A stretch of DNA of 64,000 bases from an uncultured Rhodospirillaceae bacterium (GTDB lineage Bacteria; Pseudomonadota; Alphaproteobacteria; SP197), in contig CALGGB010000095.1 in assembly GCA_937880925.1 (NCBI GenBank), forward strand, positions 4,782 to 68,781, given 5' to 3'. Below, piece by piece: positions 1,349-29,696 of this stretch (position 1 is its first letter; the number at the start of each line of letters is the position of its first letter). The translations under genes and the position numbers were made by a program. The notes under the pieces were generated by a model that did no database searches, was not told the DNA's origin, and saw nothing but the letters and a program-made list of their open reading frames with translations.

Positions 1349-2284
1349 TCAGTAGATGGCGGTAACGGTGTAGCCGGCGCCGGCGAAACGCTCCAGCAGG
1401 CCTGCCTCCCCGGTCAGATGGAGTGCGCCCACGGCAATGAACAGGCCGCCGTCGGCCAGCATCGGTTGCAGGCGCGCGAACATGTTGGCGTCGCGCCGGG
1501 TCTTCAGGCGCTCCATGAAACGCGCCACCAGCGCGGCCTCCTGGGAGTCCTCCAGGGCGTCACTGACGCTGAGGATACCGGCCAGATCGCGCTCCAGGTA
1601 GAAGCGCAGCATCAGCTCGAAGGCCAGATCGTTCTCCTCCTTGCTCTCCACCAGGGAGCGCAGCAGGGCGATCTGGTCCTCCTCCGGCAGGTCGTCGAAC
1701 ACCTGGATCTGTTCGGCTGCGGTCTCCAGCCCGCGCAGGTCCTTGCCCGCGCGCGTCGCTTCCTCCTGGAGCAGGGTATCGAGGACGACGCCGCTCGCCA
1801 TCATGGCGCGCATCTGCTCGACCGGCACCGAAAGCAGCACCAGAAGGCCCCAGGGCTTGTAGCGGCGCACCAGGGGCGAGGTCAGGCCATAGGTCCGCGC
1901 TACCGCCACGGTCTGCTGCCAAAGCTCCGCGCCCAACTCCTCCTCAAGGTTGCGCCCGTCGCTGTAGAACATCATGGCCGCCACCGCCTGCTGCTCGGCA
2001 GCGCTGTCGATGACCTCGAAGACAGCGGTGTCGCTGGCCGCCAGGGCCTGGCTTACCGCATCGGGAATGTCCAGAACGCGTGGGTCGGCAATATGCATGG
2101 TGCCGAGCAGATAGCTTGCGCGTCCGCCATCGGGGGGATCCAGGCGCCACAGCAGGCCCTGGTCGAAGCGGCCATCCTGCGCCAGGGCGCCGCCGGCCGC
2201 AGCAAGCAACAGCAAGACACCGGCAAAGCCGCACAATCGGAGCAGGGCAATGGGACGCAGGCGCAGGAAACGGGACATCGGCAT
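1349..2284 (-). CDS. TraB/GumN family protein, secreted
   Basis: N-terminal signal peptide and TraB/GumN-like conserved blocks (GTMHI...; IAVGALHL). 311 aa. Confidence 0.65.
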   Translation of the reverse strand: MPMSRFLRLRPIALLRLCGFAGVLLLLAAAGGALAQDGRFDQGLLWRLDPPDGGRASYLLGTMHIADPRVLDIPDAVSQALAASDTAVFEVIDSAAEQQAVAAMMFYSDGRNLEEELGAELWQQTVAVARTYGLTSPLVRRYKPWGLLVLLSVPVEQMRAMMASGVVLDTLLQEEATRAGKDLRGLETAAEQIQVFDDLPEEDQIALLRSLVESKEENDLAFELMLRFYLERDLAGILSVSDALEDSQEAALVARFMERLKTRRDANMFARLQPMLADGGLFIAVGALHLTGEAGLLERFAGAGYTVTAIY

Positions 2285-2412: not shown

Positions 2413-3462
2413 CTAGAAGCCGGCCTTCAATTCTTCCCACATGTTGGAGGCCTTCTCGCGGACCTCGGGGTTCCACTCATCGAAGAAGACGCCCAGCGCC
2501 ATGACCTTGTCGGGGTCCTCGATGCCCAGTTCGACAAGCAGGTCCTGGTTGGCGGTCTCGAAGGACACCTTGTTGACCGATCCGTAGCCGTACTCCTCGA
2601 TCATGAACACGCCGGCCTCGGGCGAGAGCGTGGCGTCGAGATAGGCATAGGCCTCGTCCTCGTCGCCGGGGCCGTCCTTGATCATGATGCTGGAATCGAC
2701 CCAGGTCAGGATGCCTTCCTTGGGGATCATGTAGCCGACGTCGTAGCCCTGCCGCTTGAGCGATGCGTAGGCGTCGTTCCAGGCATAGGCCGCGACGATC
2801 TCGCCGGAGGCCAGCGCCTGCTCCACGTCCGACTGGCTCGACCAGTAGTACCGCAGCAGCGGCCGCTGCTCGACCAGCAACTGGCGGCAGCGATCGAGAT
2901 CGGCATCGCTCATCTGATAGGGGTTCTCGATCCCCAGGATCAGTGCTGCCTCCAGGAACCCGGCATCGACGGAATCACGCTGGGCCAGGCGGCCGCTGTA
3001 CTTCTCGTCCCACAGGATGCCCCAGCTATCGTTGCCGACGTACTCGGGCGCCAGATCCTTGCGGTAGAGCACGGAGGAGTTGCCCCAGGCCAGCGGCGCA
3101 CCCCAGGTCTCGCCCTCGTAGCTGATGCCCGTGATGTCCTTGAGCTGGGGGAAGACGTTCTCCCAGTTCGAAAGGCGCGAGGTGTCGATCTGCTTGGCCA
3201 GGCCCGCATCACGCCAGCGCCCGATCAGATAGCTGGTGGGCTGCACGATGGTCGGGGCGTAGCCTGCGCGGACCTTTTCGATGGCCTCGTCGTTGTCGGC
3301 ATACAGCAGGTAGCCCGGTGCTCCGAACTCGGCATCGAAGCCGGGGCGGAGTTGCTCGACGTCATAACCCGACCAGGTGAAGATCTGGATCGTGGACTCG
3401 GCGGCGGCGCGCTGCGTCACCATCGGCAGCGAAACGGTGGCGATGCCGACCGAGGCCAACAC
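2413..3462 (-). CDS. Polyamine (spermidine/putrescine) ABC transporter periplasmic binding protein, PotD/PotF family. Orphan: no cognate permease adjacent.
   Basis: 349 aa, PotF-like throughout. GTG start directly abuts an in-frame TAG (see findings). Confidence 0.7.
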   Translation of the reverse strand: MLASVGIATVSLPMVTQRAAAESTIQIFTWSGYDVEQLRPGFDAEFGAPGYLLYADNDEAIEKVRAGYAPTIVQPTSYLIGRWRDAGLAKQIDTSRLSNWENVFPQLKDITGISYEGETWGAPLAWGNSSVLYRKDLAPEYVGNDSWGILWDEKYSGRLAQRDSVDAGFLEAALILGIENPYQMSDADLDRCRQLLVEQRPLLRYYWSSQSDVEQALASGEIVAAYAWNDAYASLKRQGYDVGYMIPKEGILTWVDSSIMIKDGPGDEDEAYAYLDATLSPEAGVFMIEEYGYGSVNKVSFETANQDLLVELGIEDPDKVMALGVFFDEWNPEVREKASNMWEELKAGF

Positions 3463-3665: not shown

Positions 3666-5039
3666 CTAGCGGTCGCGCCAGGCGAAGGCGAGCCTGAGGG
3701 CCCGCAGGGAGGATGCGGTGCCGCACAGCACCACAATGCCCTTTTCCGACAGCGCCTTGCCTGCCGTCATCAGCCCCGACATCGGCGTGTTGATGAGCGC
3801 TGCCATCGGCTTTGCCGTACCCGCCTGGGCGCCGACCAGGGCCTTGGAATAGCCGCCCTCGGTGGTCGGGCTCCAGGTGAAGTCGCCGCAGAACATCGTG
3901 ATGGCGACGGCAGGATCGTCGGCAAGTGCCGAGAAGAACTCCTGGAAGTCGTCCTCGAAGTTGTTTGCAGTGCCCCAGGCGTCCAGCGGGTTCACCGGCT
4001 CCAGTGCGTGGTGCAGCCGGGCGGCGAAGCGTGCCCGGGTCTTCTCGCCGATCTGCGCGAACGCCACCCCGGCGTCGTGTGCCAGGTCGACCAGCATCTC
4101 GCGCTCGCCGCCGCTGTCGAGCACCACGCCCAGGTCGCCGTCCGCGATCTTGCGCGCGCTGGAAAGCAGGGTCAGCAGATTGCCCATTTCCTCCATGTTG
4201 GCCACGCGCAGCACGCCGTGGCGGGCAAACATCGCCTCGTAGTCGGCATCCCTGCCGGTGTCGGCGTTGGAATGCACGCGGGCAAAGGCCGCCGCGGCGG
4301 GCGTGCGCCCGACCTTCATGGCGACCACGGGGACGCCCTGGGCGAATGCCCTGGCCAGTGCCGTCTCCATGGCGGCTGGGTCGCGCGCCTGTTCCATGAA
4401 CAGGGCGATGGCCCTGGTCGAGGGCATCTCCAGGGCATAGTCGATGTATTCGGCCATGGTCGCACCGATCTCCTGTCCGCAGGAGACGACCAGGTTGCAG
4501 CCGTAACGCCAGTCGTTGAGCCCGATCTCGCTGAACACCGTGCCCGAATGGGTGATGAAGGCGACATTGCCGCCCTCGCGCATCTTGTCGGCGGCGTTGT
4601 AGGTCGTCGCCGGAATGCGCCGGGCCATGTTGAGAAAGCCCATGCCGTTGCCGCCGCACACCGGCATGCCGGCTTCGGCCGCCATGGCCTTCAGGCGGGC
4701 AAGCAGGGCGCGCTCGGGATCGTTGTCGACATAGCAGGTGTCGAAGATGACCGCAGCCCTGATGCCGCGCGCGATGGCGTCTGCCAGCTGGCCTTCGATA
4801 TGGGCGCTGTTGACCCCGATGATGGCGAGGTCCACCGCCTCGGGAATGTCCTGCAGACTGCCGAAGCAGGGCAGGCCGTGGACGGCGTCGTACTTGGGAT
4901 TGACCGCATAGATCGTGCCGCCGAAGGCGCAGGCCTGCAGGCCTTCGACCATGCCGCTGCCGACGCTGCCCGGTCGTTCGGAGGCTCCCACCACGGCGAT
5001 GGAGCGGGGGTTGAGCAGGGGATCAAGGCGATGGCGCAT
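3666..5039 (-). CDS. Acyl-CoA synthetase (NDP/ADP-forming), CoA-binding plus ATP-grasp/ligase-CoA domains
   Basis: 457 aa. N-terminal CoA-binding motif (IAVVGASERPGSVG). Overall similarity to acetate--CoA ligase (ADP-forming) and succinyl-CoA-ligase-like enzymes. Confidence 0.65.
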   Translation of the reverse strand: MRHRLDPLLNPRSIAVVGASERPGSVGSGMVEGLQACAFGGTIYAVNPKYDAVHGLPCFGSLQDIPEAVDLAIIGVNSAHIEGQLADAIARGIRAAVIFDTCYVDNDPERALLARLKAMAAEAGMPVCGGNGMGFLNMARRIPATTYNAADKMREGGNVAFITHSGTVFSEIGLNDWRYGCNLVVSCGQEIGATMAEYIDYALEMPSTRAIALFMEQARDPAAMETALARAFAQGVPVVAMKVGRTPAAAAFARVHSNADTGRDADYEAMFARHGVLRVANMEEMGNLLTLLSSARKIADGDLGVVLDSGGEREMLVDLAHDAGVAFAQIGEKTRARFAARLHHALEPVNPLDAWGTANNFEDDFQEFFSALADDPAVAITMFCGDFTWSPTTEGGYSKALVGAQAGTAKPMAALINTPMSGLMTAGKALSEKGIVVLCGTASSLRALRLAFAWRDR

Positions 5040-5253
5040 CGGCGGAGTTCCTGGTTGGTCTGGTTGCGCTGCGTATCAGGTTCGCACGAGCGGGCAAGCA
5101 CGATCCCTGTTTCCTGTCTCTCTATCTAACGTTTGCTTGACGTACAACAAATTAACTTGCTATCCTGACGACAGAATTGGCGCCCGTGCCGTGCTCGGCC
5201 CAGGCCGCCATCTCTCAGGAACATCAACAGGTTACGCGTTGGAGGAACGGGCC
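5040..5253. promoter_or_regulatory. Divergent intergenic region between the acyl-CoA synthetase (-) and the TetR-Rieske fusion (+). Contains an AT-richer patch TTGCTTGACGTACAACAAATTAACTTGC and SD GGAGGA 7 nt before ATG 5254.
   Basis: Sequence inspection only. Confidence 0.4.
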
Positions 5254-7188
5254 ATGACCGCGAAGGCGGCCGAGAAGAAGGATGTGCGGCGCAAGGATCT
5301 GATCGAGGCCACGATCAGCGCGATCGCGCACAACGGGTTTGCGCGCACGACATTGGCCGATGTCGCCGCAGCCGCGGGTTTGTCGCGCGGCATCGTCAAC
5401 TTCTACTTCGAGAGCAAGGACGATCTCTTCCTGGAGACCCTGCGTTATCTTGCCGAGGAATATGCCGGACTGATCCGCGCCGCGGTCGACGCCGCCGGCA
5501 GCGATCCGGCTGCCCGCGTCGTCGCCTTCATCGACGCCGACCTCAATCCGCGCGTCTGGAATCTCGACCGCATCGCCGCCTGGGTGGCCTTCCTGGCCGA
5601 ATCCAAGAGCCATCCCGACTACCGCGAGATCTGCCGTCGCTACGACGTCGCCTCCGCCGAGGAGCTTTCCAACCAGATCGAGCTGCTCATCCTGCGCTCG
5701 GGCCGCCCGTCCTCGGACGGCGTGGTGATCGCGCGCTGCCTCTCGGCGATGCAGCAGGGCTTCTGGTACGACCTGCTGTTCTACGGCGAATCCTACGATC
5801 ATGCCTTCGTGCGCGGCGCGCTGGTCGACTATCTCGCCCGCGTCATGCCCGAAAGCTTCGATTCCTATCGCCGCGCACCGGCGCAACGCCCGACCCTGTC
5901 GGTCTATACCGCCGGCGGCGCCGACGATGCCCTGCCGCGCGAACTGCCGCTGACCGCCCTGCCGGGCGACCCCCTGCCGGAACCGCCGGCCACCGGTTCG
6001 ACGCTGGCGGGCGGGGTCAAGACCCTGCCGGCCTGGACCTACAAGAACGACGAGTTCTACCAGCTCGAGACCGAGCACATCTTCGACACCCACTGGCAGG
6101 TCGTCTGCCACCTCAACGATGTGAAGAAGGCCGGTGACTACGCCACGCTCGATCTGGCGACGCGCCGCGTGGCCGTGATCCGCGACAAGGCCGGCGACGT
6201 GCGCGCCTTCCACAACGTCTGCCGCCACCGCGCCGCCCGCCTGTGTCCGGGCAAGCACGGCAACCACCGCTTCAACATCGTCTGCCCCTACCACGGCTGG
6301 TCCTACAACTTCGACGGCACCCTGCGCGCCATGTCGGAGGGCCACACCTTCCCCGAGATCGACACCGACAAGTTCGGCCTTTGGGAGATCGACACGGAAA
6401 TCTGGAACGGCTTCGTCTTCGTGCGCCTGAAGAACGACGACGGTCCCAGCGTCGAGCAGATCATGGCGCCCTATGCCGAGGAGCTTGCGCCCTATCGCTT
6501 CGCCGAGATGGAGCCGATCGGCCCCATCTGGACCGGTCCGGTGGTCAACACCGACTGGAAGAACACGATGGACAACTACCTGGAGGGGTATCACATCAAC
6601 CCCGGCCATCCCGGCCTCTTCCGCATGTTCGGCAACAGCTACGTCACCGAGGCCAACGAGCACGGCACGGGCCGCGCCTTCTCGGTGCTGAAGGACGAAC
6701 CCTCCAGCGTCTGGGCGGAGGGTCTCTACATGAAGCTGCTGCCCAGCTTCGACCACCTGCCCGAGGAGCGCCAGCGCGCCTGGGTCTACTACAGCCTGTT
6801 CCCCAACATGGCCTTCGACGTCTATCCCGATCAGGTGACCGTATTCCACGTCATGCCGATCGCGCCGGGCAAGAGCCAGGTCGTCGGCGGCGCCTACGCG
6901 CTGCCCGATGCCCGGCGTGAGGTGAAGGCCTGCCGCTGGCTCTCCAACCGCATCAACCACCAGGTCTGGCTGGAGGACAACGAACTCACCGACCTGGTGC
7001 AGGAAGGCCTGCAGTCGGGGCCTTACACCACGGGTTACTTCTCCGAGAAGGAGGTGTGTCTGGCCCGCTTCCACCAGAACATCCGCGCCCGCCTGCCGGT
7101 CGCCACCCTCGACCGCGTGCCTCACGAAGGCAACGTCGCCGACGTCAACGCCCAGCTTTCAAGGCGCCTCGCCGAAGCGGCGGAGTAG
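5254..7188 (+). CDS. Fusion protein: N-terminal TetR/BetI-type HTH regulator domain (about 200 aa) plus C-terminal Rieske [2Fe-2S] non-heme-iron oxygenase alpha subunit (GbcA/CntA-like)
   Basis: A single uninterrupted 644-codon frame from an SD-preceded ATG. TetR HTH: LADVAAAAGLSRGIVNFYFESKDDLF. Pro-rich linker. Rieske motif CRHRAARLCPGKHGNHRFNIVCPYHGW. Mononuclear-iron region DNYLEGYHINPGHPG. Confidence 0.7.
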   Translation: MTAKAAEKKDVRRKDLIEATISAIAHNGFARTTLADVAAAAGLSRGIVNFYFESKDDLFLETLRYLAEEYAGLIRAAVDAAGSDPAARVVAFIDADLNPRVWNLDRIAAWVAFLAESKSHPDYREICRRYDVASAEELSNQIELLILRSGRPSSDGVVIARCLSAMQQGFWYDLLFYGESYDHAFVRGALVDYLARVMPESFDSYRRAPAQRPTLSVYTAGGADDALPRELPLTALPGDPLPEPPATGSTLAGGVKTLPAWTYKNDEFYQLETEHIFDTHWQVVCHLNDVKKAGDYATLDLATRRVAVIRDKAGDVRAFHNVCRHRAARLCPGKHGNHRFNIVCPYHGWSYNFDGTLRAMSEGHTFPEIDTDKFGLWEIDTEIWNGFVFVRLKNDDGPSVEQIMAPYAEELAPYRFAEMEPIGPIWTGPVVNTDWKNTMDNYLEGYHINPGHPGLFRMFGNSYVTEANEHGTGRAFSVLKDEPSSVWAEGLYMKLLPSFDHLPEERQRAWVYYSLFPNMAFDVYPDQVTVFHVMPIAPGKSQVVGGAYALPDARREVKACRWLSNRINHQVWLEDNELTDLVQEGLQSGPYTTGYFSEKEVCLARFHQNIRARLPVATLDRVPHEGNVADVNAQLSRRLAEAAE

Positions 7189-7215
7189 CGACGCGCCGCT
7201 CCCTTCTTCTCTGCT

Positions 7216-7305
7216 CCTCATTCCCGTGAACGCGGGAATCCAGGGTTGCGCGCTCCAGCGGCTCTTGCGCGCGCTGCCTGGTTTCCCGCGTCCGCAGGGA
7301 TGAGG
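7216..7305. repeat. Composite imperfect inverted repeat: two arms of about 38 bp, about 80% matching. The left arm also contains the perfect hairpin ATTCCCG-TGAACG-CGGGAAT.
   Basis: Left arm 7216-7253 versus the reverse complement of right arm 7267-7305. Lies between the Rieske-fusion stop and the ACAD start. Confidence 0.6.
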
Positions 7306-7399
7306 ACAAGGAGAGCGCGCGCAACGTCCCCTCTCCCTTGCGCGTCCATCCCGTCCGCACCACAGTAACCAGCGACCCCAAGCCTCCCGGAGCCTCCTC

Positions 7400-9718
7400 A
7401 TGCCCTATCCATTGCCCGCCGGCGCCCGCGACTGGCAGCAGAAGATGCGCACGTTCACCGATGAGCGGCTGATCCCCTGGGAGGTCCATGCCGAGATGAA
7501 CGACGGCTTCGTACCCCAGGAGGAGCATGAGGCGATCTTTGCCGCCACGCGCGCCATGGGTCTCTACTTCCCATCGCTACCGCGCGAGGGCGGCGGCGCG
7601 GAACTCACCAAACTGGAGATCGCGGTCATCCAGGAGCAGGTCGGACGCGCCACCAACGGCCTGGGGTTCTGCTACGCCGACCTTTCGCCCTTCCTCTACC
7701 ACACGGCCAACCCGCACCAGATGGCCCGCTACGTGAAGCCGATGCTGCAGGCCGGCAAACGTGTCGCCTACGCCATCACGGAAGAGGGCGCTGGCTCGGA
7801 CGTCGATGCCATCGAGGCGACCGCCACCAGGGACGGTAACGGCTACATCCTCAACGGCGTGAAGCTCCACGTCACCGGCGCCAACCTTTCCGACTGGCTG
7901 GTCTTCCAGGCCAAGCTGGAGGACGGCAGCCACGCGCTGTTTTATGTCGACTCCGGCGCCAAGGGCGTCTCGACCATCCGCACCCCTAAGTACACGCACA
8001 ACTTCCGCGCCCATCACCTGCTGATGAAGTTCGAGAACGTGCATGTCACCGCCGACGACATGATCGACCCCGATGGCGACGCCATCGGCTGGACCTACGA
8101 CTGGTTCCGCCAGGAGCGCATGAAGATCGCCGCGCGCTGCTGCGGCGCCGCCAGCCGCCTGATCGACGAGGCCCTTGCGTTCGCGCAGGAGCGCGTGCAG
8201 TTCGGCACGCCGATCTGGGAGAACCAGGCGGTCCAGTTCCCCATCGCCGACAGCCTCACCGAACTCTGGGCCGGCCGGCTGATGACCTACGACCTGGCCG
8301 CGGCCATGGATGCGAAGGAAGACGTCAAGGTGCTGCACGCCAAGTGCGCCATGGCCAAGCTCTTCTGCTCGGAATTCGCCTGGCGCACCGCCGACCGCGT
8401 CGTCCAGGTCTTCGGCGGCCGCGGCTACATGCGCGAGAACCCGGCCGAGCGTTTCTATCGCGAGCTGCGCGTCGACCGCATCTGGGAGGGCACCAGCGAA
8501 ATCCAGCGCGTCATCATCGCGCATAGTCTGAGGAAGCGCGGCCAGGAAGCCCTGATCGGTGTGCCCGAGACGGAAAAGGCGAAGGCCTGGCACGCCAAGC
8601 TGCGCCCCTTCGTCGAGAAGGAGCTGATCCCATGGGAGCAGCACGCCGAGGACAACGACGGCTTCATTCCCGACGACATCCGCAAGGGCCACATCCAGAA
8701 GGCAAGGGAGATGGGCCTCTGGCTGCCGCTGATCGACAAGGAACACGGCGGCGGCGGTCTCGACACCTCCGAGATCGTCGCGGTCCAGGAGGAGATCGGG
8801 CGTGTCACCAACGGGGTGGGCTGGTGCTACCACGACACCTCGCCCTTCCTGGTCAACACGGCAACGCCCTGGCAGATGGAGCACTACGTGAAGGGCCTGC
8901 TCGATGGCACCCGCCACGAGTGTTACGCCATTACCGAGGAGGGCGCGGGCTCGGACGTCGACGCGATCAAGGCGACCGCGAAGAAAGAGGGCAACGGCTA
9001 TGTGCTCAACGGCCTGAAGTGGCACGTCACCAGCGCCAATCTCGCCGACGTCATCATCTTCCAGGCCAAGCTGGAGGACGGCAGCCATGGCCTGTTCTAT
9101 GTCGACAGCGACGCTGAAGGCATCGAGACCGTGCGCACGCCGGCCTACACCCACACCTATCCCGCGCACCATCCGATCATGAAGTTCACGGATGTGAAGG
9201 TGCCCGCCGATGCCCTGATCGATCCCGAAGGCAGCGGCATCGCGCTCACCCACGAGTGGTTCCGCCAGGAGCGCCTGGGCATCGCCGGACGCTGCTGCGG
9301 CGCGGCTTCGCGGCTCATCGACGAGGCGCTTGCCTTTGCCGAGGAGCGCGTGCAGTTCGGCAAGCCGATCATCGAGAACCAGGCCATCGCCTTCATGCTG
9401 GCCGACAGCCTGACCGAGCTGTGGGCCGGCCGCCTGATGATCCATCGCCTGGCCCAGGCGATCGATGCCGGCGAGGATGTGAAGGTCCAGCACGCCCAGT
9501 GCGCCATGGCCAAGCTCTACTGCTCGGAGATGGCAAACCGGGTCGCCGACCGCGCCGTGCAGATCTTCGGCGGGAGGGGTTACATGCGCGAATACGCCGC
9601 CGAGCGCTTCTATCGCGAGCTGCGCGTCGACCGCATCTGGGAAGGCACCAGCGAGATCCAGCGGATGATCATCGCCCACAGCCTGGCCAAGCGCGGCCAG
9701 GACGAGCTGATCGGTTAG
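7400..9718 (+). CDS. Tandem-duplicated acyl-CoA dehydrogenase (two complete ACAD units in one 772-aa polypeptide)
   Basis: Residues 1-386 and 387-772 are clearly paralogous at roughly 60-65% identity. Each half ends with the ACAD C-terminal block containing the catalytic Glu (IWEGTSEIQR). Confidence 0.8.
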   Translation: MPYPLPAGARDWQQKMRTFTDERLIPWEVHAEMNDGFVPQEEHEAIFAATRAMGLYFPSLPREGGGAELTKLEIAVIQEQVGRATNGLGFCYADLSPFLYHTANPHQMARYVKPMLQAGKRVAYAITEEGAGSDVDAIEATATRDGNGYILNGVKLHVTGANLSDWLVFQAKLEDGSHALFYVDSGAKGVSTIRTPKYTHNFRAHHLLMKFENVHVTADDMIDPDGDAIGWTYDWFRQERMKIAARCCGAASRLIDEALAFAQERVQFGTPIWENQAVQFPIADSLTELWAGRLMTYDLAAAMDAKEDVKVLHAKCAMAKLFCSEFAWRTADRVVQVFGGRGYMRENPAERFYRELRVDRIWEGTSEIQRVIIAHSLRKRGQEALIGVPETEKAKAWHAKLRPFVEKELIPWEQHAEDNDGFIPDDIRKGHIQKAREMGLWLPLIDKEHGGGGLDTSEIVAVQEEIGRVTNGVGWCYHDTSPFLVNTATPWQMEHYVKGLLDGTRHECYAITEEGAGSDVDAIKATAKKEGNGYVLNGLKWHVTSANLADVIIFQAKLEDGSHGLFYVDSDAEGIETVRTPAYTHTYPAHHPIMKFTDVKVPADALIDPEGSGIALTHEWFRQERLGIAGRCCGAASRLIDEALAFAEERVQFGKPIIENQAIAFMLADSLTELWAGRLMIHRLAQAIDAGEDVKVQHAQCAMAKLYCSEMANRVADRAVQIFGGRGYMREYAAERFYRELRVDRIWEGTSEIQRMIIAHSLAKRGQDELIG

Positions 9719-9728
9719 GGCAGGGACC

Positions 9729-10463
9729 GTGGCCGCCAGCCAGCCCAGCGTCATCGGCCATCGCGGCTGTGCCGCCCACGCGCCCGAAAACACGCTGGGC
9801 GGCTTCGGCCGTGCGGCCGAACTGGGTTGCGACTGGGTCGAGTTCGATATCCAGATCTCGCGCGACGGCGTGCCCGTGGTGATGCACGACGCGAACCTGG
9901 AACGCACCACCGGCCTCGACATGCCGGTGCGCTTCCTGGTTGCGCGGCGTATCGCCGAACTTGATGCCGGCTCCTGGTTCGGTCCGGAATGGCGCGACGA
10001 ACGGGTGCCGACGCTCGCCCAGGCGCTCGATGCCTGCGCCGTGCTCGGTCTGATGCCCAATGTCGAGGTAAAATACGATTGCGGAGCCCTGCGCCGTTGC
10101 GCGCGGGCGGTCGCGGCCGTCATTGCTCAGCGCTGGCCGGCGGGCAGGGACCGGCCGCTGGTATCCAGTTTCAGTCTGCGCGCGCTCTACTGGTCGCGCC
10201 TGGCCGGCCCCGAACAGCCTCTGGCACTTCTGATGTGGCAGAAGCCGGTAAAGTTCTGGGGGCTGCATGCCCGCCTGCTGTCCTGCCGCGCGATCCATGT
10301 CGATGCGTCGCTGGCCAGTCAGGCGCTTCTGGACAAGGCACACCGACGTGGCCTGAAGGTCGGTGTCTATACCGTCAACGATGGCGCGCTCGCCGCCGAA
10401 CTGCGGGAACGGGGCGTCGACTACATCTTTTCCGATAAGCCCGAAGAGATGGCAGCCACCTAG
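9729..10463 (+). CDS. Glycerophosphodiester phosphodiesterase (GDPD family)
   Basis: N-terminal VIGHRGCAAHAPENTLGGF...DWVEFDIQISRDGVPVVMHD is the GDPD catalytic signature. 244 aa. Confidence 0.8.
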   Translation: MAASQPSVIGHRGCAAHAPENTLGGFGRAAELGCDWVEFDIQISRDGVPVVMHDANLERTTGLDMPVRFLVARRIAELDAGSWFGPEWRDERVPTLAQALDACAVLGLMPNVEVKYDCGALRRCARAVAAVIAQRWPAGRDRPLVSSFSLRALYWSRLAGPEQPLALLMWQKPVKFWGLHARLLSCRAIHVDASLASQALLDKAHRRGLKVGVYTVNDGALAAELRERGVDYIFSDKPEEMAAT

Positions 10464-12127: not shown

Positions 12128-12464
12128 AGCGGCGTATCAGCGACGCTTGCGGCTTGTCGCGGCGCGTTCCGCGGCCCGGTCTGCATCCCGGTTGGAAGGG
12201 GCCGTCAAAGCCGACATGGTCTGGACGAGGCCCAGGAAGGGAAGCGTGAAGTAGTTCATGGCCGTGCGCCTTTCCAAGCGTCAGGGGTTATCCTTCATGC
12301 GATATGGCCGGGTGCGGCGCGGCCTGCAAATGCTGGCTTTGGATGGCTGCCCCGCGCTGCTCGCATGGCCGTCCACGCGAACCCTTTCCTGCTCGGGCGT
12401 TTCGCATTCGCGCGATCCGCTCTAGTCTGGGCGTCCCCTTTCACGAACCATCTGGAGCCGCTCC

Positions 12465-13790
12465 GTGGCCGAAACCTTCGATCTCATTCTGCGCGGCGGG
12501 CAGGTCTTCTCGCCCGGCGGCCTGCTCGAAACCGATGTCGGTGTCCGCGACGGCCGTATCGTGCGCATCGGCCAGATCGCCCCTGAACAAGGCGGCGAGC
12601 TGTTCGACGCCCGGGGACTGACCGTGCTGCCCGGCGTGATCGACACGCAGGTCCACTTCCGTGAGCCCGGCAACGAGCACAAGGAGGATCTGGCGACCGG
12701 TTCGGCCGCCGCCGTGGCGGGCGGTGTCACCGCGGTCTTCGAGATGCCCAACACCAGCCCCTCCACCACCACCGCCGAGGCGATGGAAGACAAGCTCAAG
12801 CGCGCTGCAGGGCGCATGCTCTGCGATCATGCCTTTTTCATCGGTGCTGCCGACAACGCCGATCACCTTGCTGATCTGGAGCGGATGCCCGGCTGCTGCG
12901 GCGTGAAGATCTTCATGGGAAGCTCCACCGGCAGCCTGCTTGTCGAGGACGATGCCGCGCTGGCGAAAATTCTGGCAGCCGGCCGCCGTCGCGTCGCCAT
13001 CCATGCTGAGGACGAGCCTCGCCTGAAGGAGCGCAAGAAGATCGCCGAAGAGAGCGGCGATGTCGCCGACCATCCCAACTGGCGTGATGTCGAATCCGCC
13101 CTGAAGGCGACCCACCGCATCGTTGCTCTCGCGCGCGAGGCCAACCGGCCGATCCACGTCCTCCACATCACCACTGCCGAGGAACTGGAGTTTCTGGCCG
13201 GCGTGAAGGATGTCGCCACCGTGGAGGCGACACCCCAGCATCTGACCATGGCCGCGCCAGATTGCTACACGCGCATGGGCACCCTGGCGCAGATGAACCC
13301 GCCGATCCGTGAGGCGCGCCACCGCGATGCCCTTTGGCAGGCGGTGCGCGAGGGTGTCGTGGATGTGCTGGGTTCCGACCACGCACCCCATACCCGGGAG
13401 GAAAAGGAAAAGCCCTATCCGGCCAGTCCGTCGGGCATGCCCGGCGTGGAGACCATGTTGCCGCTGATGCTGAGCCACGTTTCCAGCGGTCGCTTGTCAC
13501 TGACGCGTGTGGTCGACCTGCTCTGCGCCGGCCCCCAGCGCATCTACAACATCCGCGGCAAGGGTCGCATCGCCCTGGGCTACGACGCCGACTTCACCGT
13601 CGTCGACCTCAAGGCGCGCCGCACCCTGAGCCACGACATGATGCACAGCAAGGTCGGCTGGACGCCCTTCGACGGCCTGAAGGTCCAGGGCTGGCCGATG
13701 GCGACCATCATCCGCGGCGGCTTTGCCATGCGCGACGGCGAACTGGCGCATGAGCCCCAGGGCAAGCCGGTGCGTTTCTGGGATACCTGA
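12465..13790 (+). CDS. pyrC: Dihydroorotase (cyclic amidohydrolase, type I)
   Basis: 441 aa. Motif PGVIDTQVHFREPG...TGSAAAVAGGVTAVFEMPNT. GTG start. Confidence 0.7.
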   Translation: MAETFDLILRGGQVFSPGGLLETDVGVRDGRIVRIGQIAPEQGGELFDARGLTVLPGVIDTQVHFREPGNEHKEDLATGSAAAVAGGVTAVFEMPNTSPSTTTAEAMEDKLKRAAGRMLCDHAFFIGAADNADHLADLERMPGCCGVKIFMGSSTGSLLVEDDAALAKILAAGRRRVAIHAEDEPRLKERKKIAEESGDVADHPNWRDVESALKATHRIVALAREANRPIHVLHITTAEELEFLAGVKDVATVEATPQHLTMAAPDCYTRMGTLAQMNPPIREARHRDALWQAVREGVVDVLGSDHAPHTREEKEKPYPASPSGMPGVETMLPLMLSHVSSGRLSLTRVVDLLCAGPQRIYNIRGKGRIALGYDADFTVVDLKARRTLSHDMMHSKVGWTPFDGLKVQGWPMATIIRGGFAMRDGELAHEPQGKPVRFWDT

Positions 13791-21810: not shown

Positions 21811-22641
21811 CTAATTTTCCGGCCCCGCCGGCACCGGCCCCGTCGGGGGATAGCTGCCGTCTTCGTCGTGCAGTTCGTTGCCGTGGAGCGGCGGGTTGAA
21901 GATGCTCAGCACATGGGAGTCCTCGGCGATCCGCACATGATGGCGGTCCCTGGGGCCGACGGCGAAGATGCTGCCGGTGCCGATGTCGTGGGTCTTGCCC
22001 GTGGCGTGGTCGGTGACCACGAGCAGGCCATCGAGCACGATGTTGGCCTCCCAGTGGTTCTTGTACCAGAGTGCCATTTCCTGGCCCTTCCGGAAGCGCA
22101 CGTCCGAGAGGGTGAAACCCAGCCCGTCCGGCGCGGTCAGCAGGCGCGCCCAGCGCGGCGAGCCGCCCTCCTTGACCACGACATGGCCGGCGGCCTCGGC
22201 GTCCTTCCAGGTGCGCACGAACATCGCCGGCTGTCCGGGCGGGATCTCGCCGCCGGGCGGATAGCTGCCGTCTGCATCGTGGCTCTCGCCGCCCTGCAGC
22301 GGCGGGTTGAAGACGCTGATGATGCGGAAGCCTTCGCCACCGGCGTTCTCCAGGCGGTGGCGGTCGGTCGGGCCGACGCAGTAGAGCATGCCGGGTTCAA
22401 GCTGCCAGACCTGGCCGGTGGTCAGGTTTTCCAGCGTGCCCGTGCCCTGGCGCACGTAGTTCGCCTCCCAGTGGTTCTTGTACCAGAGGGTCGCGTTGCC
22501 GCCCGGCGCGCCGCGCGCCTCCGAAAGCGAAAAGCCGATGCCGTCGGAGCGGTTGATCATGCGCAGGGCGCTCGACCTGCCCTGGTTGATGGCGATCAGG
22601 CGATCGCCGCTCTCCATCTCCTCGAGCGTGCGGACCAGCAT
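21811..22641 (-). CDS. Didomain ectoine-synthase-like protein (two tandem EctC-type cupin domains), paralog 6 of 6
   Basis: N-terminus MLVRTLEE mirrors EctC MIVRNLEE. Both halves carry WYKNHWEAN, the cupin motif RH[RH][LV], and NPPLxGxExHDxDGSYPP. Confidence 0.8.
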   Translation of the reverse strand: MLVRTLEEMESGDRLIAINQGRSSALRMINRSDGIGFSLSEARGAPGGNATLWYKNHWEANYVRQGTGTLENLTTGQVWQLEPGMLYCVGPTDRHRLENAGGEGFRIISVFNPPLQGGESHDADGSYPPGGEIPPGQPAMFVRTWKDAEAAGHVVVKEGGSPRWARLLTAPDGLGFTLSDVRFRKGQEMALWYKNHWEANIVLDGLLVVTDHATGKTHDIGTGSIFAVGPRDRHHVRIAEDSHVLSIFNPPLHGNELHDEDGSYPPTGPVPAGPEN

Positions 22642-22657
22642 GGTGTTCTCCTCGGTG

Positions 22658-23473
22658 TCAGGTTTGCGGCCCCGGCGGCAGCGGGCCGGTGGGGGGATAG
22701 GCGCCGTCCTCGTCGTGCACCTCGGTGCCCGAAAGCGGCGGGTTGAACAGGCTCACGATGTGGAAGTCGCGCACCGCCTTCAGCGTGTGGCGGTCGTCGG
22801 GCCCCACGGCATACATCATGCCCGGCGTCAGCTTCAGTACCTCGCCGGTGCCGTGGTGGTGCAGTTCGCCCTCGCCGCCGAAGACATAGTTGCCTTCCCA
22901 GTGGTTCTTGTACCAGAGGTTGGCTTCGCTGCCGTCCTGGAAGTGAACGTCCGACCAGGTCAGTCCCAGGCCGTCGGCATCCAGCAGATAGCGCAGCAGT
23001 TGCGAGCCGCCCTTGCTCGTCTTGGCGCGGCCCATGGCCTGCAGGTCCGCCGGGCGATAGACGAACATCGCCTCGTGCCCCGCGGGCGGCGGCGTGGCGC
23101 CGCGGGGATAATTGCCCTCCGCGTCGTGGCTTTCCGTACCGCTCAGCGCCGGGTTGAAGACCCCCAGCACCGTGCATTCGGTGAGGTCCGTGACGCGATG
23201 GTGATCGTTCGGACCGACGCAGTACATGTCGCCCGGCCCAAGTTCCCAGCTCCGCTTCTCGCCCGAAAGCTCCTCCAGCAGGGCGCGGCCGGAGATCATG
23301 TAGCTCGCCTCCCAGTGATGGCGGTACCAGATGGTATGCGGCCCGCCCTTGGGCGCGGTGACCACAGAGATCGAGAAGCCCAGCCCGTCGCCGGCCAGCA
23401 GCAGGCGCTGGGTGTTCGCCCCGCCGTGGGAGATGGCGGTGCCGTTGAGGTCGGTGCGCGTGCGGTGGAACAT
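22658..23473 (-). CDS. Didomain EctC-like cupin protein, paralog 5
   Basis: 271 aa with two EctC-like halves (WYRHHWEAS / WYKNHWEGN; C-terminal NPPLSGTEVHDEDGAYPPTG). Confidence 0.8.
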   Translation of the reverse strand: MFHRTRTDLNGTAISHGGANTQRLLLAGDGLGFSISVVTAPKGGPHTIWYRHHWEASYMISGRALLEELSGEKRSWELGPGDMYCVGPNDHHRVTDLTECTVLGVFNPALSGTESHDAEGNYPRGATPPPAGHEAMFVYRPADLQAMGRAKTSKGGSQLLRYLLDADGLGLTWSDVHFQDGSEANLWYKNHWEGNYVFGGEGELHHHGTGEVLKLTPGMMYAVGPDDRHTLKAVRDFHIVSLFNPPLSGTEVHDEDGAYPPTGPLPPGPQT

Positions 23474-23476
23474 CGC

Positions 23477-24292
23477 TCAGATCCCTCCCGGGCCCGGCGG
23501 CACCGGCCCGGTTGGGGGATAGCCGCCCTTGTCGTCGTGCAGCTCGTCGCCGGCCAGCGGCGGATTGAAGATGCTGACCAGATGCAGGTCGCTGCCCGCC
23601 GTCAGGGTATGGCGATCCTCCGGCCCGACACAGTAGAGCAGGCCGGGCGCCAGAATCAGCGTCTCGCCGGTACCGTGATGGTCGATCGTGCCGCTGCCGG
23701 AAAAGACATAGTTGGCTTCCCAGTGGTTGCGGTACCACAGGTTGGAGACGACGCCGTCCCTGAAATGAACATCCGACCAGGCAAAACCCAGCCCGTCCTC
23801 GGCCAGCAGGTAACGCAGCAGTTCGGCGTTGCCGGAAGCGCTGGTCTTGGCACGGCCCCGCTGCTTCAGATCACCGGGCGTGACGACGAACATGGAAGGC
23901 TGCCCCGCCGGCACGTTGCCGGTGGGCGGATAGGTGCCTTCGCTGTCATGAGTCTCGTCGCCGTTGATCGGCGGGTTGAAGACGCTCATTACCGTCATCG
24001 GCGTCTGCGCGGTGACCCGGTGGCGGTCGGTCGGGCCGACGCAGTACATGTCGCCCGCCGTCAGGTCCCAGGTCCGCCCGCTCGCCACCTCTTCCAGGAG
24101 AAGCTCCCCGGCAATGACGTAGTTGGCCTCCCAGTGGTGCTTGTACCAGAGCTCGTGCGGCCCGCCGGCCGGCCCGGTGACGATCGAGAGCGAAAAGCCC
24201 AGGCCATCGCCTTTCGTCAGGGGCCGCGCCGCGCTCGCCTTTCCGTGGGAGATGGCGACGCCGCGCGCCGTGTCGATGCTGCGATGGAACAT
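23477..24292 (-). CDS. Didomain EctC-like cupin protein, paralog 4
   Basis: 271 aa. Both halves EctC-like (WYKHHWEANYV / WYRNHWEANYV). Confidence 0.8.
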   Translation of the reverse strand: MFHRSIDTARGVAISHGKASAARPLTKGDGLGFSLSIVTGPAGGPHELWYKHHWEANYVIAGELLLEEVASGRTWDLTAGDMYCVGPTDRHRVTAQTPMTVMSVFNPPINGDETHDSEGTYPPTGNVPAGQPSMFVVTPGDLKQRGRAKTSASGNAELLRYLLAEDGLGFAWSDVHFRDGVVSNLWYRNHWEANYVFSGSGTIDHHGTGETLILAPGLLYCVGPEDRHTLTAGSDLHLVSIFNPPLAGDELHDDKGGYPPTGPVPPGPGGI

Positions 24293-24296
24293 GGTG

Positions 24297-25124
24297 TCAG
24301 CTTCCTTTCGGTCCGGGCGGCACGGGGCCGGATGCGGCGAGCGTGCCCTCCGCGTCGTGAATCTCGTCGCCCCGCAGGGGAGGATTGAAGACAGAGATGA
24401 GGTGAAGGTCTTCCTCCGCGTGCATGGCGTGGCGGTCCTTGGGCCCGACGCAGTACATCATGCCCGGCTCCATCACCCAGCTCTCTCCCGTCGTCAGGTC
24501 CTCGACGCGGCCGCGCCCGGAGAGCACCACGTTGGCCTCCCAGTGGTGCTTGTACCAGAGCGTATTGCTGTTCCCCGCAGGCATGTGAACGTCGCTCAGC
24601 GTGATGCCGACATCGTCCTCCTGCGTCAGCATGCGCAGGGTCGTCGCCGAGTCCGCGGCGGCCGAGAGAAGGCGTCCGGCATCGCTCAGTTCCGTCACCG
24701 ATTTGGCGAACATCTTGGGCTGGCCCGCCGGCACCGGCCCGGTCGTGGGATAACTGCCGTCGGCGTCATGCTCCTCCTCGCCCGACAACGCTGGGCAGAA
24801 GACGCTGACGATGTGGCAATCCCCGCTCGCCACCATGCGATGCCTGTCCCGCGGCCCCGCGACATAAAGCAGTCCCGGCTCCAGCCGCCAGGTGCGTCCG
24901 TCGTCGAGGTCGGTAACGGTGCCCGCGCCCGCCACGATGTAGTTGGCTTCCCAGTGATGCTTGTACCACAGCGTGAAATCCATCCCCGGCGCCAGCCGCA
25001 CGTCCGACAGCGAGAACCCCAGCCCGTCATCCTTCGCCAGCATTCGGGTCGAGACAGTCTTGCCCTCGCACAGCACCTTCTGGCGCGGTGTGCCGGTCAG
25101 CTCCTTCAGGGTGCGTGCGAACAT
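24297..25124 (-). CDS. Didomain EctC-like cupin protein, paralog 3
   Basis: 275 aa. Both halves EctC-like (LWYKHHWEAN in each). Confidence 0.8.
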   Translation of the reverse strand: MFARTLKELTGTPRQKVLCEGKTVSTRMLAKDDGLGFSLSDVRLAPGMDFTLWYKHHWEANYIVAGAGTVTDLDDGRTWRLEPGLLYVAGPRDRHRMVASGDCHIVSVFCPALSGEEEHDADGSYPTTGPVPAGQPKMFAKSVTELSDAGRLLSAAADSATTLRMLTQEDDVGITLSDVHMPAGNSNTLWYKHHWEANVVLSGRGRVEDLTTGESWVMEPGMMYCVGPKDRHAMHAEEDLHLISVFNPPLRGDEIHDAEGTLAASGPVPPGPKGS

Positions 25125-25133
25125 GGCGCTCTC

Positions 25134-25946
25134 CTAAACCCAGGCTTCCGGCACGGCTCCGCCCGGTGGATAGCCGCCCAGGTCATCGTAGCGTTCGGTG
25201 CCGACAAGCGGCGGGTTGAAGACGCTGAGCCAACGCACGCCGTTGCTGTTGCTCACACGGTGCTTGTCCTTCGGGCCGATGACGAAGAGGTCGCCGGGTT
25301 CCAGCGCGTGAGTCTTGCCGGTCGCCTTGTCGAGCACTTCGGCCGAACCCTCGACCAGGTAGTTCGCCTCGACATGGTGGCGGTACCACAGGTCGATCCC
25401 GAGGCCCGGCTTGGTCGTGAGGTCCGAGAGCGAAAGGCCGATACCGTCGGCGGCGAGCAGGGGACGGTGGACACCAGAGCTGCCGGTGCTGAGTTCGGTG
25501 CGCACATAGTCGCGCGGGCCGCGCACGAACATCGTCCTTCCGCCGTTGCCCCACCCTTCCGGCAGGGGCCCCGATGTTGCAAAGGCGCCATCCGCGCCCT
25601 TCTCCAGGATCAGGGCGGGCGTGAACATCGAGAAGGTCGTCCACGGCCCCTCGAAGGCGATGCTGTAGCGGTCGTCGGGACCGACGACGTAGAACGAACC
25701 CGGCTCCAGCGGCCATGTCTGCCCGTCCTCGCGCGTGATGCGGCCCGTGCCCTCCAGCACGTAGTTGCCCTTCACATGATGCGGGTAGTTCAGCGGCCCG
25801 GTCTCGATCGGTTCATCGGATTCGACCGTCGCAAGGGCAAAGCCGGTGCCTTCGTCCCGGGTCAGGTAGATCAGCGCGCGGGCGCCGGCGCCAAAGGGGG
25901 TCTCGCGGGCGCTGCCTGCGAGGTCGCGCTTGCGGATCACCAGCAC
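25134..25946 (-). CDS. Didomain EctC-like cupin protein, paralog 2. N-terminal half degenerate.
   Basis: C-terminal half retains WYRHHVEANYLVEG...NPPLVGTERYDDLGGYPPGG. N-terminal half has lost the WYKNHWE and ExHDxDG blocks. Confidence 0.7.
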   Translation of the reverse strand: MLVIRKRDLAGSARETPFGAGARALIYLTRDEGTGFALATVESDEPIETGPLNYPHHVKGNYVLEGTGRITREDGQTWPLEPGSFYVVGPDDRYSIAFEGPWTTFSMFTPALILEKGADGAFATSGPLPEGWGNGGRTMFVRGPRDYVRTELSTGSSGVHRPLLAADGIGLSLSDLTTKPGLGIDLWYRHHVEANYLVEGSAEVLDKATGKTHALEPGDLFVIGPKDKHRVSNSNGVRWLSVFNPPLVGTERYDDLGGYPPGGAVPEAWV

Positions 25947-25998
25947 CCCCGGACCTCCCAGGCTCGTGTTGTCGTCGCCGTCGGTACATGGGTGGCGT

Positions 25999-27174: not shown

Positions 27175-27185
27175 GTCCGCGTCCT

Positions 27186-28025: not shown

Positions 28026-28150
28026 GGTCACATCCTTCCCTGTCCAGGTCACATGACAGCCTACCTGACAGGCTGCTGCAAGTCGCAGGTGGCCGTGCTA
28101 AATCTTGCCGTCCATGGGGACTATTCCCACAGTACGGAAAGGGCAGGGCG
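28026..28150. promoter_or_regulatory. Divergent promoter/leader region between the EctC-like operon (-) and the cupin/DoeB-like operon (+). Contains the dyad CAGCCT-N7-AGGCTG (28058-28076).
   Basis: Sequence inspection. The dyad lies 33-51 bp upstream of ATG 28025. Confidence 0.4.
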
Positions 28151-28498: not shown

Positions 28499-28549
28499 CT
28501 CCCATCCCCGCGCCTCCGACAAGGTGCCGGGTGATCGCTGGAGTTGCCG

Positions 28550-29689: not shown

Positions 29690-29696
29690 GGCGGCC

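Follow-up and report, generated by a model that had tools for sequence, protein, structure and literature searches.

A TetR-family module fused to a Rieske oxygenase alpha subunit is a conserved architecture and a candidate autoregulatory enzyme

We examined a 64,000-nucleotide stretch of DNA (hereafter the window) from an uncultured Rhodospirillaceae bacterium (GenBank assembly GCA_937880925.1, contig CALGGB010000095.1, positions 4,782 to 68,781 of the forward strand). One gene, at positions 5254-7188 of the window, encodes a TetR-family module, a proline-rich linker and a Rieske non-heme iron oxygenase alpha subunit in a single chain. TetR repressors are usually small proteins of some 200 residues that stand alone, and control of Rieske oxygenases normally acts in trans. 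Comparison with homologs confirmed that the TetR-Rieske fusion is a genuine, conserved architecture. Judging from sequence comparisons, we consider it on balance probable that the protein is an autoregulatory bifunctional repressor-oxygenase of the "trigger enzyme" kind, combining a BetI-type TetR repressor with a group-V-like Rieske monooxygenase alpha subunit.

Results

One reading frame joins two complete modules

Read directly from the sequence, the open reading frame (ORF) runs from ATG at 5254 to TAG at 7186-7188 (644 codons) and is preceded by a well-placed Shine-Dalgarno sequence, GGAGGA (5241-5246), as a first-pass annotation of this DNA had described. Pfam searches placed four domains along the protein, all above their gathering scores: TetR_N at residues 16-61 (47.7 bits, cut-off 24), the BetI-type domain TetR_C_6 at residues 85-197 (40.7 bits, cut-off 27), the Rieske domain at residues 280-360 (69.5 bits) and Ring_hydroxyl_A at residues 431-614 (121.8 bits). 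A complete TetR helix-turn-helix (HTH) and ligand-binding region is thus followed by a complete Rieske oxygenase, again in line with the annotation. The protein has both marks of the TetR family, an N-terminal three-helix HTH (PF00440) and an all-helical C-terminal ligand/dimerisation domain, and both marks of a Rieske alpha subunit, a CxH-x18-CxxH cluster motif and a 2-His-1-carboxylate iron site with a bridging carboxylate. The cluster spacing, C323-x-H325-x18-C344-x2-H347, corrects the X17 given previously to X18.

Nine of the 51 junction residues (206-256) are proline. Across residues 199-262 the frame contains no stop and no ATG, GTG or TTG codon, so that a separate start of the oxygenase part is impossible. 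The linker had been described as free of stops and of Met; this is true of residues 199-262, although the frame does have an internal Met close by, M198, which lies within the last TetR helix and hence inside the TetR module.

We built an AlphaFold2 model of the monomer from 35 homologs, with a mean predicted local distance difference test score (pLDDT) of 87 and a predicted template modelling score (pTM) of 0.62. The TetR module (residues 1-205) was modelled as all helical, with ten helices at pLDDT 85-95. Residues 214-253 had pLDDT values below 50 and lie between the confident domains 1-205 and 256-644. The pTM fits flexible tethering, with a predicted disordered tether of about 40 residues joining the two domains. 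In structure comparison, no Protein Data Bank (PDB) entry spanned both modules (query-normalised template modelling score [TM] at most 0.48).

The fusion is conserved and widespread

A search of a collection of 5.8 billion proteins yielded more than 110 fused clusters of 588-656 residues, at 36-95% identity, that carry all four Pfam domains. Their hosts are Alphaproteobacteria (Kiloniellales, Rhodospirillales), Myxococcales/Deltaproteobacteria and unclassified metagenome-assembled genomes (MAGs) of Pseudomonadota, full-length fusions being present in Gammaproteobacteria and Myxococcota as well as in Alphaproteobacteria, and the sequences come from NCBI, ENA, JGI and Logan assemblies, including complete chromosomes or contigs of 3.6-7.8 Mb. 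The oxygenase family that we examined, drawn from the protein collection and from loci in GTDB genomes, has 198 members, at least 127 fused and 71 unfused; the fused count refers to clusters at 90% identity and is a lower bound. Searched exhaustively with HMMER, the representatives at 50% identity gave 423 family-level matches at E <1e-30, with about 25-30 fused clusters among the best 150 matches. One protein from this search, P0133 (1342 aa), continues beyond TetR_N, TetR_C_6, Rieske and a truncated catalytic domain with the ATPase and membrane domains of an ABC transporter; it could be a further fusion, but it looks like a chimeric gene call.

Existing annotation recognises both halves of such proteins: JGI uses [quoted passage not shown], and NCBI uses "SRPBCC family protein" or "transcriptional regulator BetI". 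The full-text literature that we searched, whose coverage leaves out many subscription papers, contained no description of the fused architecture. The first-pass annotation had called the fusion unusual; with at least 127 clusters at 90% identity and about 25-30 at 50% it is not rare. The architecture is uncharacterised rather than rare, and more widespread than had been assumed.

The frame was continuous across the junction in all fused orthologs, both in those at 95, 90, 86, 83 and 58% identity and in more than 100 more distant proteins. Linker length varied widely across the fused family, and the indels were in frame. Both motifs on which the annotation had relied are conserved in the family, the Rieske ligands being invariant in 198 of 198 members and HTH residues L16, G28, T33, F52 and K55 in the 127 fused proteins, which come from several phyla. 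The 35 fused representatives that we aligned span 36-95% identity. We computed ratios of nonsynonymous to synonymous substitution rates (dN/dS) against the closest orthologs, at 95, 86 and 83% identity. The TetR module gave 0.08-0.24, the oxygenase module 0.06-0.12, the lowest ratio in the protein, and the linker, which retains its frame in every ortholog, 0.3-0.6. Both modules are under purifying selection.

These data bear on the possibility that the fusion is a sequencing or assembly artefact, in which a frameshift merged two adjacent genes. In its favour, two-gene split versions are known in some genomes (for example, L044 and L007). We nevertheless rejected the artefact, whose probability we regard as negligible, because more than 120 independent sequences from NCBI, ENA, JGI and Logan, complete chromosomes among them, share the same continuous frame and linker indels preserve it; the linker also offers no start codon for a separate oxygenase gene.

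The oxygenase module resembles group V enzymes

The full iron motif reads D440-N-Y442-L-E444-G-Y-H447-INPG-H452, with D575 as the predicted carboxylate. H447, H452, D575 and the bridging E444 are kept in the window protein and in 118 of the 127 fused proteins. The best PDB sequence matches were Stc2 (E 2.7e-34) and CntA (E 1.3e-26), and the best fold match of the AlphaFold2 model was CntA (CntA-normalised TM 0.82-0.83, root-mean-square deviation 2.6-3.0 Å). Identity to Stc2 and CntA is 21-23% overall; the match in sequence extends over the Rieske half as far as the iron motif, beyond which the C-terminal substrate-binding half is divergent. HMMER aligned DNY442-L-E444-G-Y-H447 in register with DNY203-M-E205-C-Y-H208-C-GPA-H213 of CntA; Stc2 reads NN-R-E-C-Y-H.

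Group V Rieske oxygenases are defined by the bridging glutamate and are split by the residue two positions before it (Quareshy et al., PMC7948474). Group Va (CntA, choline monooxygenases, OxyBAC) has Tyr or Phe there, which makes a cation-pi contact with trimethylammonium, and the group Vb demethylases (GbcA, BmoA, Stc2) have Asn (PMC7948474). With its bridging E444 and with Stc2 and CntA as top sequence and fold matches, the window oxygenase is predicted to belong with group V. Y442, which aligns with CntA Y203, is the signature of subgroup Va. The Cys206/Cys209 pair of CntA, which adjoins the iron site (PMC10952381), is absent from the fusion protein, where G445 and I448 take these positions. 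Of the 198 family members, 118 have Y or F at position 442, 77 have D and 3 have N, and this variation suggests that different clades have different amine substrates.

GbcA was the best NCBIfam match for the oxygenase half, although its model (NF058607) scored 143.1 bits against a cut-off of 670 and aligned over model positions 32-228 of 420 only, that is, the Rieske half. The earlier description of the oxygenase as GbcA-like does not survive this score, nor the Va-type Tyr that replaces the Asn of GbcA at the signature position; in that respect the window protein is not GbcA-like. CntA, which had been counted among the N-demethylases, is a C-N-cleaving monooxygenase and not a demethylase.

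The TetR module is BetI-type, with a candidate operator upstream

BetI was the best NCBIfam match for residues 8-195, and neither BetI equivalog cut-off was reached (TIGR03384, 100.1 bits vs 201.3; NF001978, 98 bits vs 118). The TetR module is therefore BetI-type, not BetI: of the label "BetI-type regulator" in the first-pass annotation, the type stands by TetR_C_6 and the best NCBIfam match, whereas the scores fall short of BetI itself. BetI is the choline-responsive TetR repressor of betIBA. Neither betA nor betB was among the annotated neighbours of the fusion gene (CoA ligase, PotD-like binding protein, acyl-CoA dehydrogenase [ACAD] and glycerophosphodiester phosphodiesterase [GDPD]). On the basis of curated cut-offs and signature residues, we rejected orthology with GbcA, BetI and CntA. 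Within the ligand domain, Y123 is invariant and W110, F113 and E116 are at least 97% conserved in the 127 fused proteins. We infer that these four residues resemble a cation-pi/carboxylate cage, as expected of a cation-binding pocket.

The fusion gene is separated from the divergent CoA-ligase gene by a 214-bp region (5040-5253), in which the first-pass annotation had proposed to look for DNA binding; it contains an imperfect palindrome at 5132-5151. Its halves are TTTGCTTGAC and GTACAACAAA. In the intergenic DNA upstream of orthologs with 58-95% protein identity, the palindrome is the sole conserved block; the version in L085 has the halves TTTGCTTGAC and GTACAGCAAA, and that in L001 and L087 has TTGGCTGGAC and GTTCAGCCAA and is symmetric at 9 of 10 positions. 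We detected only one promoter-like site in 4950-5350 (at 5137-5166), against 0.1 expected from shuffled sequences, and its -35 hexamer sits at the centre of the palindrome. A conserved palindrome over the -35 box of the only promoter-like site of the gene suggests autorepression, and it matches the pattern expected for the operator of an autorepressing TetR protein, which we infer it to be. There was no second palindrome site within the 64-kb window. The exact core occurred in just 4 of 87 loci: the close relatives L001, L085 and L087, and one other locus. More distant fused genes (L006, L089, L010, L009 and L003) have other AT-rich palindromes just upstream, such as ATTGAATGATAATTCAAT in L006 and GATTAAATGCTCATTCAATC in L089, and no family-wide operator consensus was obtained.

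Split relatives and proteins with altered iron sites

Both modules also occur as separate neighbouring genes. Dongia sedimenti R-7 (L044) has a 216-aa TetR gene, closed by a stop, and 88 nt further down that strand a 403-aa oxygenase gene; in a Candidatus Acidoferrum MAG (L007), a 222-aa TetR gene is followed on the same strand by the oxygenase in another frame. In L072 and L082, the oxygenase gene adjoins a divergent TetR gene whose product belongs to the subfamily of the fused module (about 38% identity), and at 25 further loci a BetI-like TetR of this subfamily lies within 10 kb of the oxygenase gene. Since unfused versions are found both adjacent on one strand and divergent, this is a true Rosetta-stone case, as the first-pass annotation had claimed. 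In the neighbour-joining tree that we built from oxygenase modules, fused proteins are interspersed with unfused ones. This suggests repeated fusion or fission events, and from a tree without support values we draw no firm conclusion about a single origin. Tandem Rieske paralogs were seen beside some family members: in L004 (10001-13068) the fused copy is followed by a second oxygenase at 42% identity, and in L012, L016, L021, L063, L066, L069, L073, L076 and L081 the paralog is at 24-28% identity.

The mononuclear-iron site is remodelled in nine of the 127 fused proteins, by H447E in P0043, P0054 and P0056 and by the combination of E444Q, H447E and D575N in P0088, P0093, P0095, P0096, P0111 and P0117. 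All nine, which include the proteins of loci L088 and L089, retain the Rieske ligands and an intact HTH. None of the 71 unfused homologs examined had iron-site changes of this kind. The P0054 gene lies in the usual cluster, with aminotransferase and flavoprotein genes divergent and CoA-ligase and ACAD genes downstream, and has no other Rieske oxygenase gene within 14.5 kb. These nine proteins are possible pseudoenzyme sensors. That the fusion persists where iron-site residues have been lost is an argument for regulation as the function that all fused proteins share, and the regulatory role of the fusion thus appears to be the conserved one.

The neighbourhood points to amine catabolism

The features of the fusion gene and its surroundings are listed in Table 1.

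Table 1. Features of the fusion locus (positions in the window)
Feature	Position	Strand	Basis
Fusion gene: TetR (BetI-type), linker, Rieske oxygenase alpha subunit, 644 aa	5254..7188	+	ORF, Pfam, homologs, AlphaFold2
Shine-Dalgarno GGAGGA, 7 nt before ATG	5241..5246	+	Read from sequence; kept in L084, L085
TetR module, residues 1-205: HTH and TetR_C_6 ligand/dimerisation domain	5254..5868	+	Pfam, AlphaFold2, conservation, dN/dS
Pro-rich flexible linker, residues 206-255	5869..6018	+	Low pLDDT, variable length, relaxed dN/dS
Rieske non-heme iron oxygenase alpha module, residues 256-644	6019..7185	+	Pfam, Stc2/CntA similarity, dN/dS
Rieske [2Fe-2S] ligands C323, H325, C344, H347	6220..6294	+	Invariant in 198/198 family members
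Y442-L-E444-G-Y-H447-INPG-H452: Va-type Tyr, bridging Glu, two His iron ligands	6577..6609	+	Alignment to CntA, Stc2
D575, predicted carboxylate iron ligand	6976..6978	+	E574-D575 invariant in alignment of 35; aligns with Stc2 ED pair
Candidate operator, 20-bp imperfect palindrome (TTTGCTTGAC and GTACAACAAA), 7/10 positions symmetric	5132..5151	.	Ortholog conservation; predicted
Sigma-70-like promoter: TTGACG, 18-nt spacer, TATCCT, TG before -10	5137..5166	+	Sequence scan
Tandem double ACAD, 772 aa, downstream	7400..9718	+	Pfam: two complete ACAD units
GDPD after ACAD	9729..10463	+	Pfam; same place in L001, L084, L086, L087
ADP-forming acyl-CoA synthetase-like protein (CoA_binding_2 and Succ_CoA_lig, no ATP-grasp domain), divergent	3666..5039	-	Pfam; kept in L001, L084-L088
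PotD/PotF-like periplasmic solute-binding protein	2413..3462	-	Pfam/NCBIfam
TraB/GumN family gene, end of divergent gene group	1349..2284	-	Pfam; kept in L001, L085, L086, L087

We took a census of the neighbourhoods of 84 loci of the oxygenase family. Components of a PotABCD-like ABC transporter were the most frequent neighbours (36-50 of 84 loci), followed by a class-III aminotransferase (37 of 84), paired CrtI/amine-oxidase-like flavoproteins (29), a GcvT-like aminomethyltransferase (24) and an aldehyde dehydrogenase (11). In L084, the 95%-identical ortholog, the flavoprotein pair, the GcvT-like gene and the CoA-ligase gene stand together, divergent from the fusion gene, an arrangement that ties the two gene sets into one pathway. 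Among NCBIfam models, and below equivalog level, the GcvT-like protein is nearest the C-terminal half of trimethylamine N-oxide (TMAO) demethylase, and the ACAD is nearest acryloyl-CoA reductase and other short-chain ACADs. The neighbours point to an uncharacterised catabolic route in which a cationic, probably N-methylated amine would be degraded via a CoA thioester. We regard the analogies to the dimethylsulfoniopropionate (DmdABC) and gamma-butyrobetaine-CoA routes as speculative.

Downstream of the fusion gene, L001, L084, L086 and L087 have a single or double ACAD; in L088 it comes after the CoA ligase, and in L007 an ACAD flanks the split pair. The doubled form of the window is also present in L084 and L086, and single ACADs of 387-389 aa are present in L001, L087 and L088. 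In L086 the GDPD gene (12284-13030) overlaps the ACAD gene by 4 nt; a GDPD could release a head-group amine from a glycerophosphodiester. The CoA synthetase-like protein without ATP-grasp_5 has 457 aa in the window, 463 aa in L084 and 462 aa in L085, and its relatives in L001, L086, L087 and L088 (623-713 aa) include ATP-grasp_5. A tblastn search of the full 64 kb detected no ATP-grasp part. In the 211-nt gap that separates the fusion gene from the ACAD gene lies a 30-nt inverted repeat (7215-7306, 83% complementary, 32-nt loop), with no second copy in the window; orthologous gaps are just 37-80 nt. The repeat may represent either a regulatory hairpin or a REP-like insertion.

Elsewhere in the window, six tandem paralogs of 270-288 aa (21811-28052, minus strand) each have two EctC-like cupin domains (Ectoine_synth, PF06339). 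This array of doubled ectoine-synthase-like proteins, which is unusual, is interrupted by a GcvT-like aminomethyltransferase gene (25999-27174) and followed on the opposite strand by two AstE/AspA-like genes (28544-30806, plus strand).

Discussion

Proposed mechanism

In the mechanism that we propose, TetR modules would form dimers that occupy the palindrome at the -35 box of the fusion gene. Binding would repress the fusion, ACAD and GDPD genes and, because the palindrome lies within the 214-bp region shared with the divergent genes, probably the CoA-ligase, binding-protein and TraB genes as well. A cationic methylated or quaternary amine would enter by the PotD-type transporter and bind the TetR_C_6 pocket, the oxygenase active site or both, releasing the DNA. 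The oxygenase module, assembled as an alpha3 trimer like CntA and Stc2, would take electrons from a reductase encoded elsewhere and oxidise the same amine, or a close metabolite, next to the nitrogen, by N-demethylation or C-N cleavage. The product would feed a CoA-dependent route (ADP-forming ligase, ACAD) together with the CrtI-like flavoproteins, the GcvT-like protein and the aminotransferase. Induction would also raise the dosage of the repressor, and consumption of the inducer by the enzyme would reset repression; with repressor and enzyme in one chain, and hence in equal amounts, the negative feedback would be built in. Our guesses for the substrate are omega-trimethylammonio or N-methylamino carboxylates, for example beta-alanine betaine or gamma-butyrobetaine. 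So far as architecture and residue conservation go, the protein unites in one chain the two parts of a trigger enzyme, a domain for DNA binding and an enzyme competent for catalysis.

Several observations weigh against this proposal. The palindrome of the window is symmetric at only 7 of 10 positions, its sequence is not common to distant fused members, and its conservation could partly reflect that of the promoter. A TetR dimer and an oxygenase trimer present a symmetry mismatch for a single-chain fusion; one solution to this 3:2 mismatch would be a dimer of trimers bridged by three TetR dimers. Electron supply is a further difficulty: a motif scan for plant-type and putidaredoxin-type ferredoxins and for the RxYS motif of ferredoxin-NADP reductases, which covered ORFs with coding-like composition and can miss unusual reductases, found no reductase-like ORF in the 64-kb window, extending the first-pass remark that no reductase partner is adjacent, and a ferredoxin- or reductase-like ORF lay near just 2-4 of the 84 related loci. 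The ACAD, CoA ligase, binding protein, GcvT-like protein, flavoproteins and aminotransferase all miss their NCBIfam equivalog cut-offs, so that the neighbours do not identify the substrate. Finally, the nine altered iron sites make catalysis appear dispensable in at least part of the fused family.

Alternative explanations

The altered iron sites lend weight to the idea that the protein is mainly a regulator, with the Rieske module as an enzyme-derived sensory domain for substrate occupancy, oxygen, iron or [2Fe-2S] redox state and with little or no turnover. The nine proteins keep their Rieske ligands and HTH, one of them (P0054) stands in the usual gene cluster without another Rieske oxygenase within 14.5 kb, and neither the window nor most related loci have a dedicated reductase gene. 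The missing reductase cannot separate a sensor from an enzyme, since unfused homologs likewise lack a neighbouring one. The window protein and 118 of the 127 fused proteins retain every catalytic residue, dN/dS is lower in the oxygenase module than elsewhere in the protein, and TetR_C_6 already provides a conserved ligand pocket, all of which count against a mere sensor; we hold this explanation to be rather unlikely, although it is the most serious competitor of the repressor-oxygenase. The first-pass annotation had suggested either a substrate-sensing autoregulatory enzyme or a regulator with a ligand domain taken from an enzyme, and both suggestions are still plausible. We also put forward, tentatively, a broader possibility to which we attach slightly more credence: the fused proteins may form a new class of one-component regulators, in which a Rieske trimer, arranged in dimers of trimers, gives sensory input to TetR outputs by reading substrate occupancy, flux or the redox state of [2Fe-2S]/Fe(II), with the degenerate subclade as the end point of an enzyme-to-sensor transition.

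It is improbable that the protein joins BetI, the choline repressor, to an ortholog of GbcA, CntA or Stc2 that acts specifically on glycine betaine, carnitine or stachydrine. GbcA and BetI are indeed the best NCBIfam matches for the two halves, Stc2 and CntA are the best PDB matches, and the bridging Glu of group V is present, but the scores are far under the cut-offs (GbcA, 143 vs 670; BetI, 100 vs 201 and 98 vs 118), the similarity to Stc2 and CntA is limited to the Rieske half and the iron motif (21-23% identity overall) and the Cys pair of CntA is replaced by G445 and I448. The motif scan of the window also revealed no gbcB, cntB or other reductase-like ORF, and the transporter is of the PotD type rather than a betaine-type binding protein. 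Even less probable is an enzyme whose TetR module does not bind DNA and serves oligomerisation or solubility. DNA binding by the TetR module is deduced from sequence, and the trimer/dimer mismatch might serve the building of higher-order enzyme assemblies; set against this, L16, G28, T33, F52 and K55 are invariant in 127 proteins across several phyla, palindromes lie directly upstream of fused genes in several lineages, and stand-alone TetR genes of the same subfamily accompany unfused oxygenase genes.

Significance

Both building blocks are already known, as are enzyme-repressor fusions in general, such as PutA, BirA and, among archaea, RbkR (for RbkR, PMC5397151). If our proposal of a repressor-oxygenase is true, the conserved TetR-oxygenase adds a new case to the enzymes that exert direct control over the operon encoding them; it offers two sites at which sensing is possible and poses an unusual problem of assembly, dimer against trimer. 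The fusion also marks an uncharacterised amine catabolic gene set that is widespread in soil and marine Proteobacteria (PotD-type transporter, CrtI-like flavoproteins, GcvT-like protein, aminotransferase, ADP-forming CoA ligase and ACAD), the substrate of which is probably a methylated or quaternary amine. The coexistence of catalytically intact and iron-site-degenerate fused proteins offers a natural series for studying enzyme-to-sensor evolution, and the fused TetR module with its candidate operator is a potential biosensor once the ligand is known.

Comparison with known systems

The fusion protein shares TetR_N and the BetI-type TetR_C_6 with BetI, and differs from it in being covalently tied to an enzyme, in its sub-cut-off scores and in having neighbours without betA or betB. 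With CntA and the plant and bacterial choline monooxygenases it has in common the Rieske motif, two His and an Asp, the bridging Glu and the Tyr two positions before it; CntA gives the best superposition, and the DNY-x-E-x-Y-H motif is identical in register. By contrast, identity to CntA is 22%, Gly and Ile stand in place of the Cys pair, no CntB-type reductase is adjacent, and the TetR module is extra. Stc2 and GbcA/BmoA share the bridging Glu and include the best PDB match (Stc2) and the best NCBIfam match (GbcA) by sequence, and Stc2, like the fusion, has no adjacent reductase; the fusion differs from these enzymes in its Tyr instead of Asn, its divergent catalytic half and its fused regulator.

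PutA (a proline dehydrogenase with a ribbon-helix-helix DNA-binding domain), BirA and NadR are enzyme-repressors of the trigger-enzyme kind. The archaeal RbkR is likewise a bifunctional enzyme-repressor (PMC5397151). As in these four proteins, a DNA-binding domain and an enzyme of the putatively controlled pathway stand on one polypeptide in the fusion, for which substrate- or flux-dependent autoregulation is, by analogy, likely too. Unlike them, the fusion uses the TetR fold and the Rieske oxygenase class, and its TetR module brings a ligand domain of its own, giving the protein two potential sensing sites.

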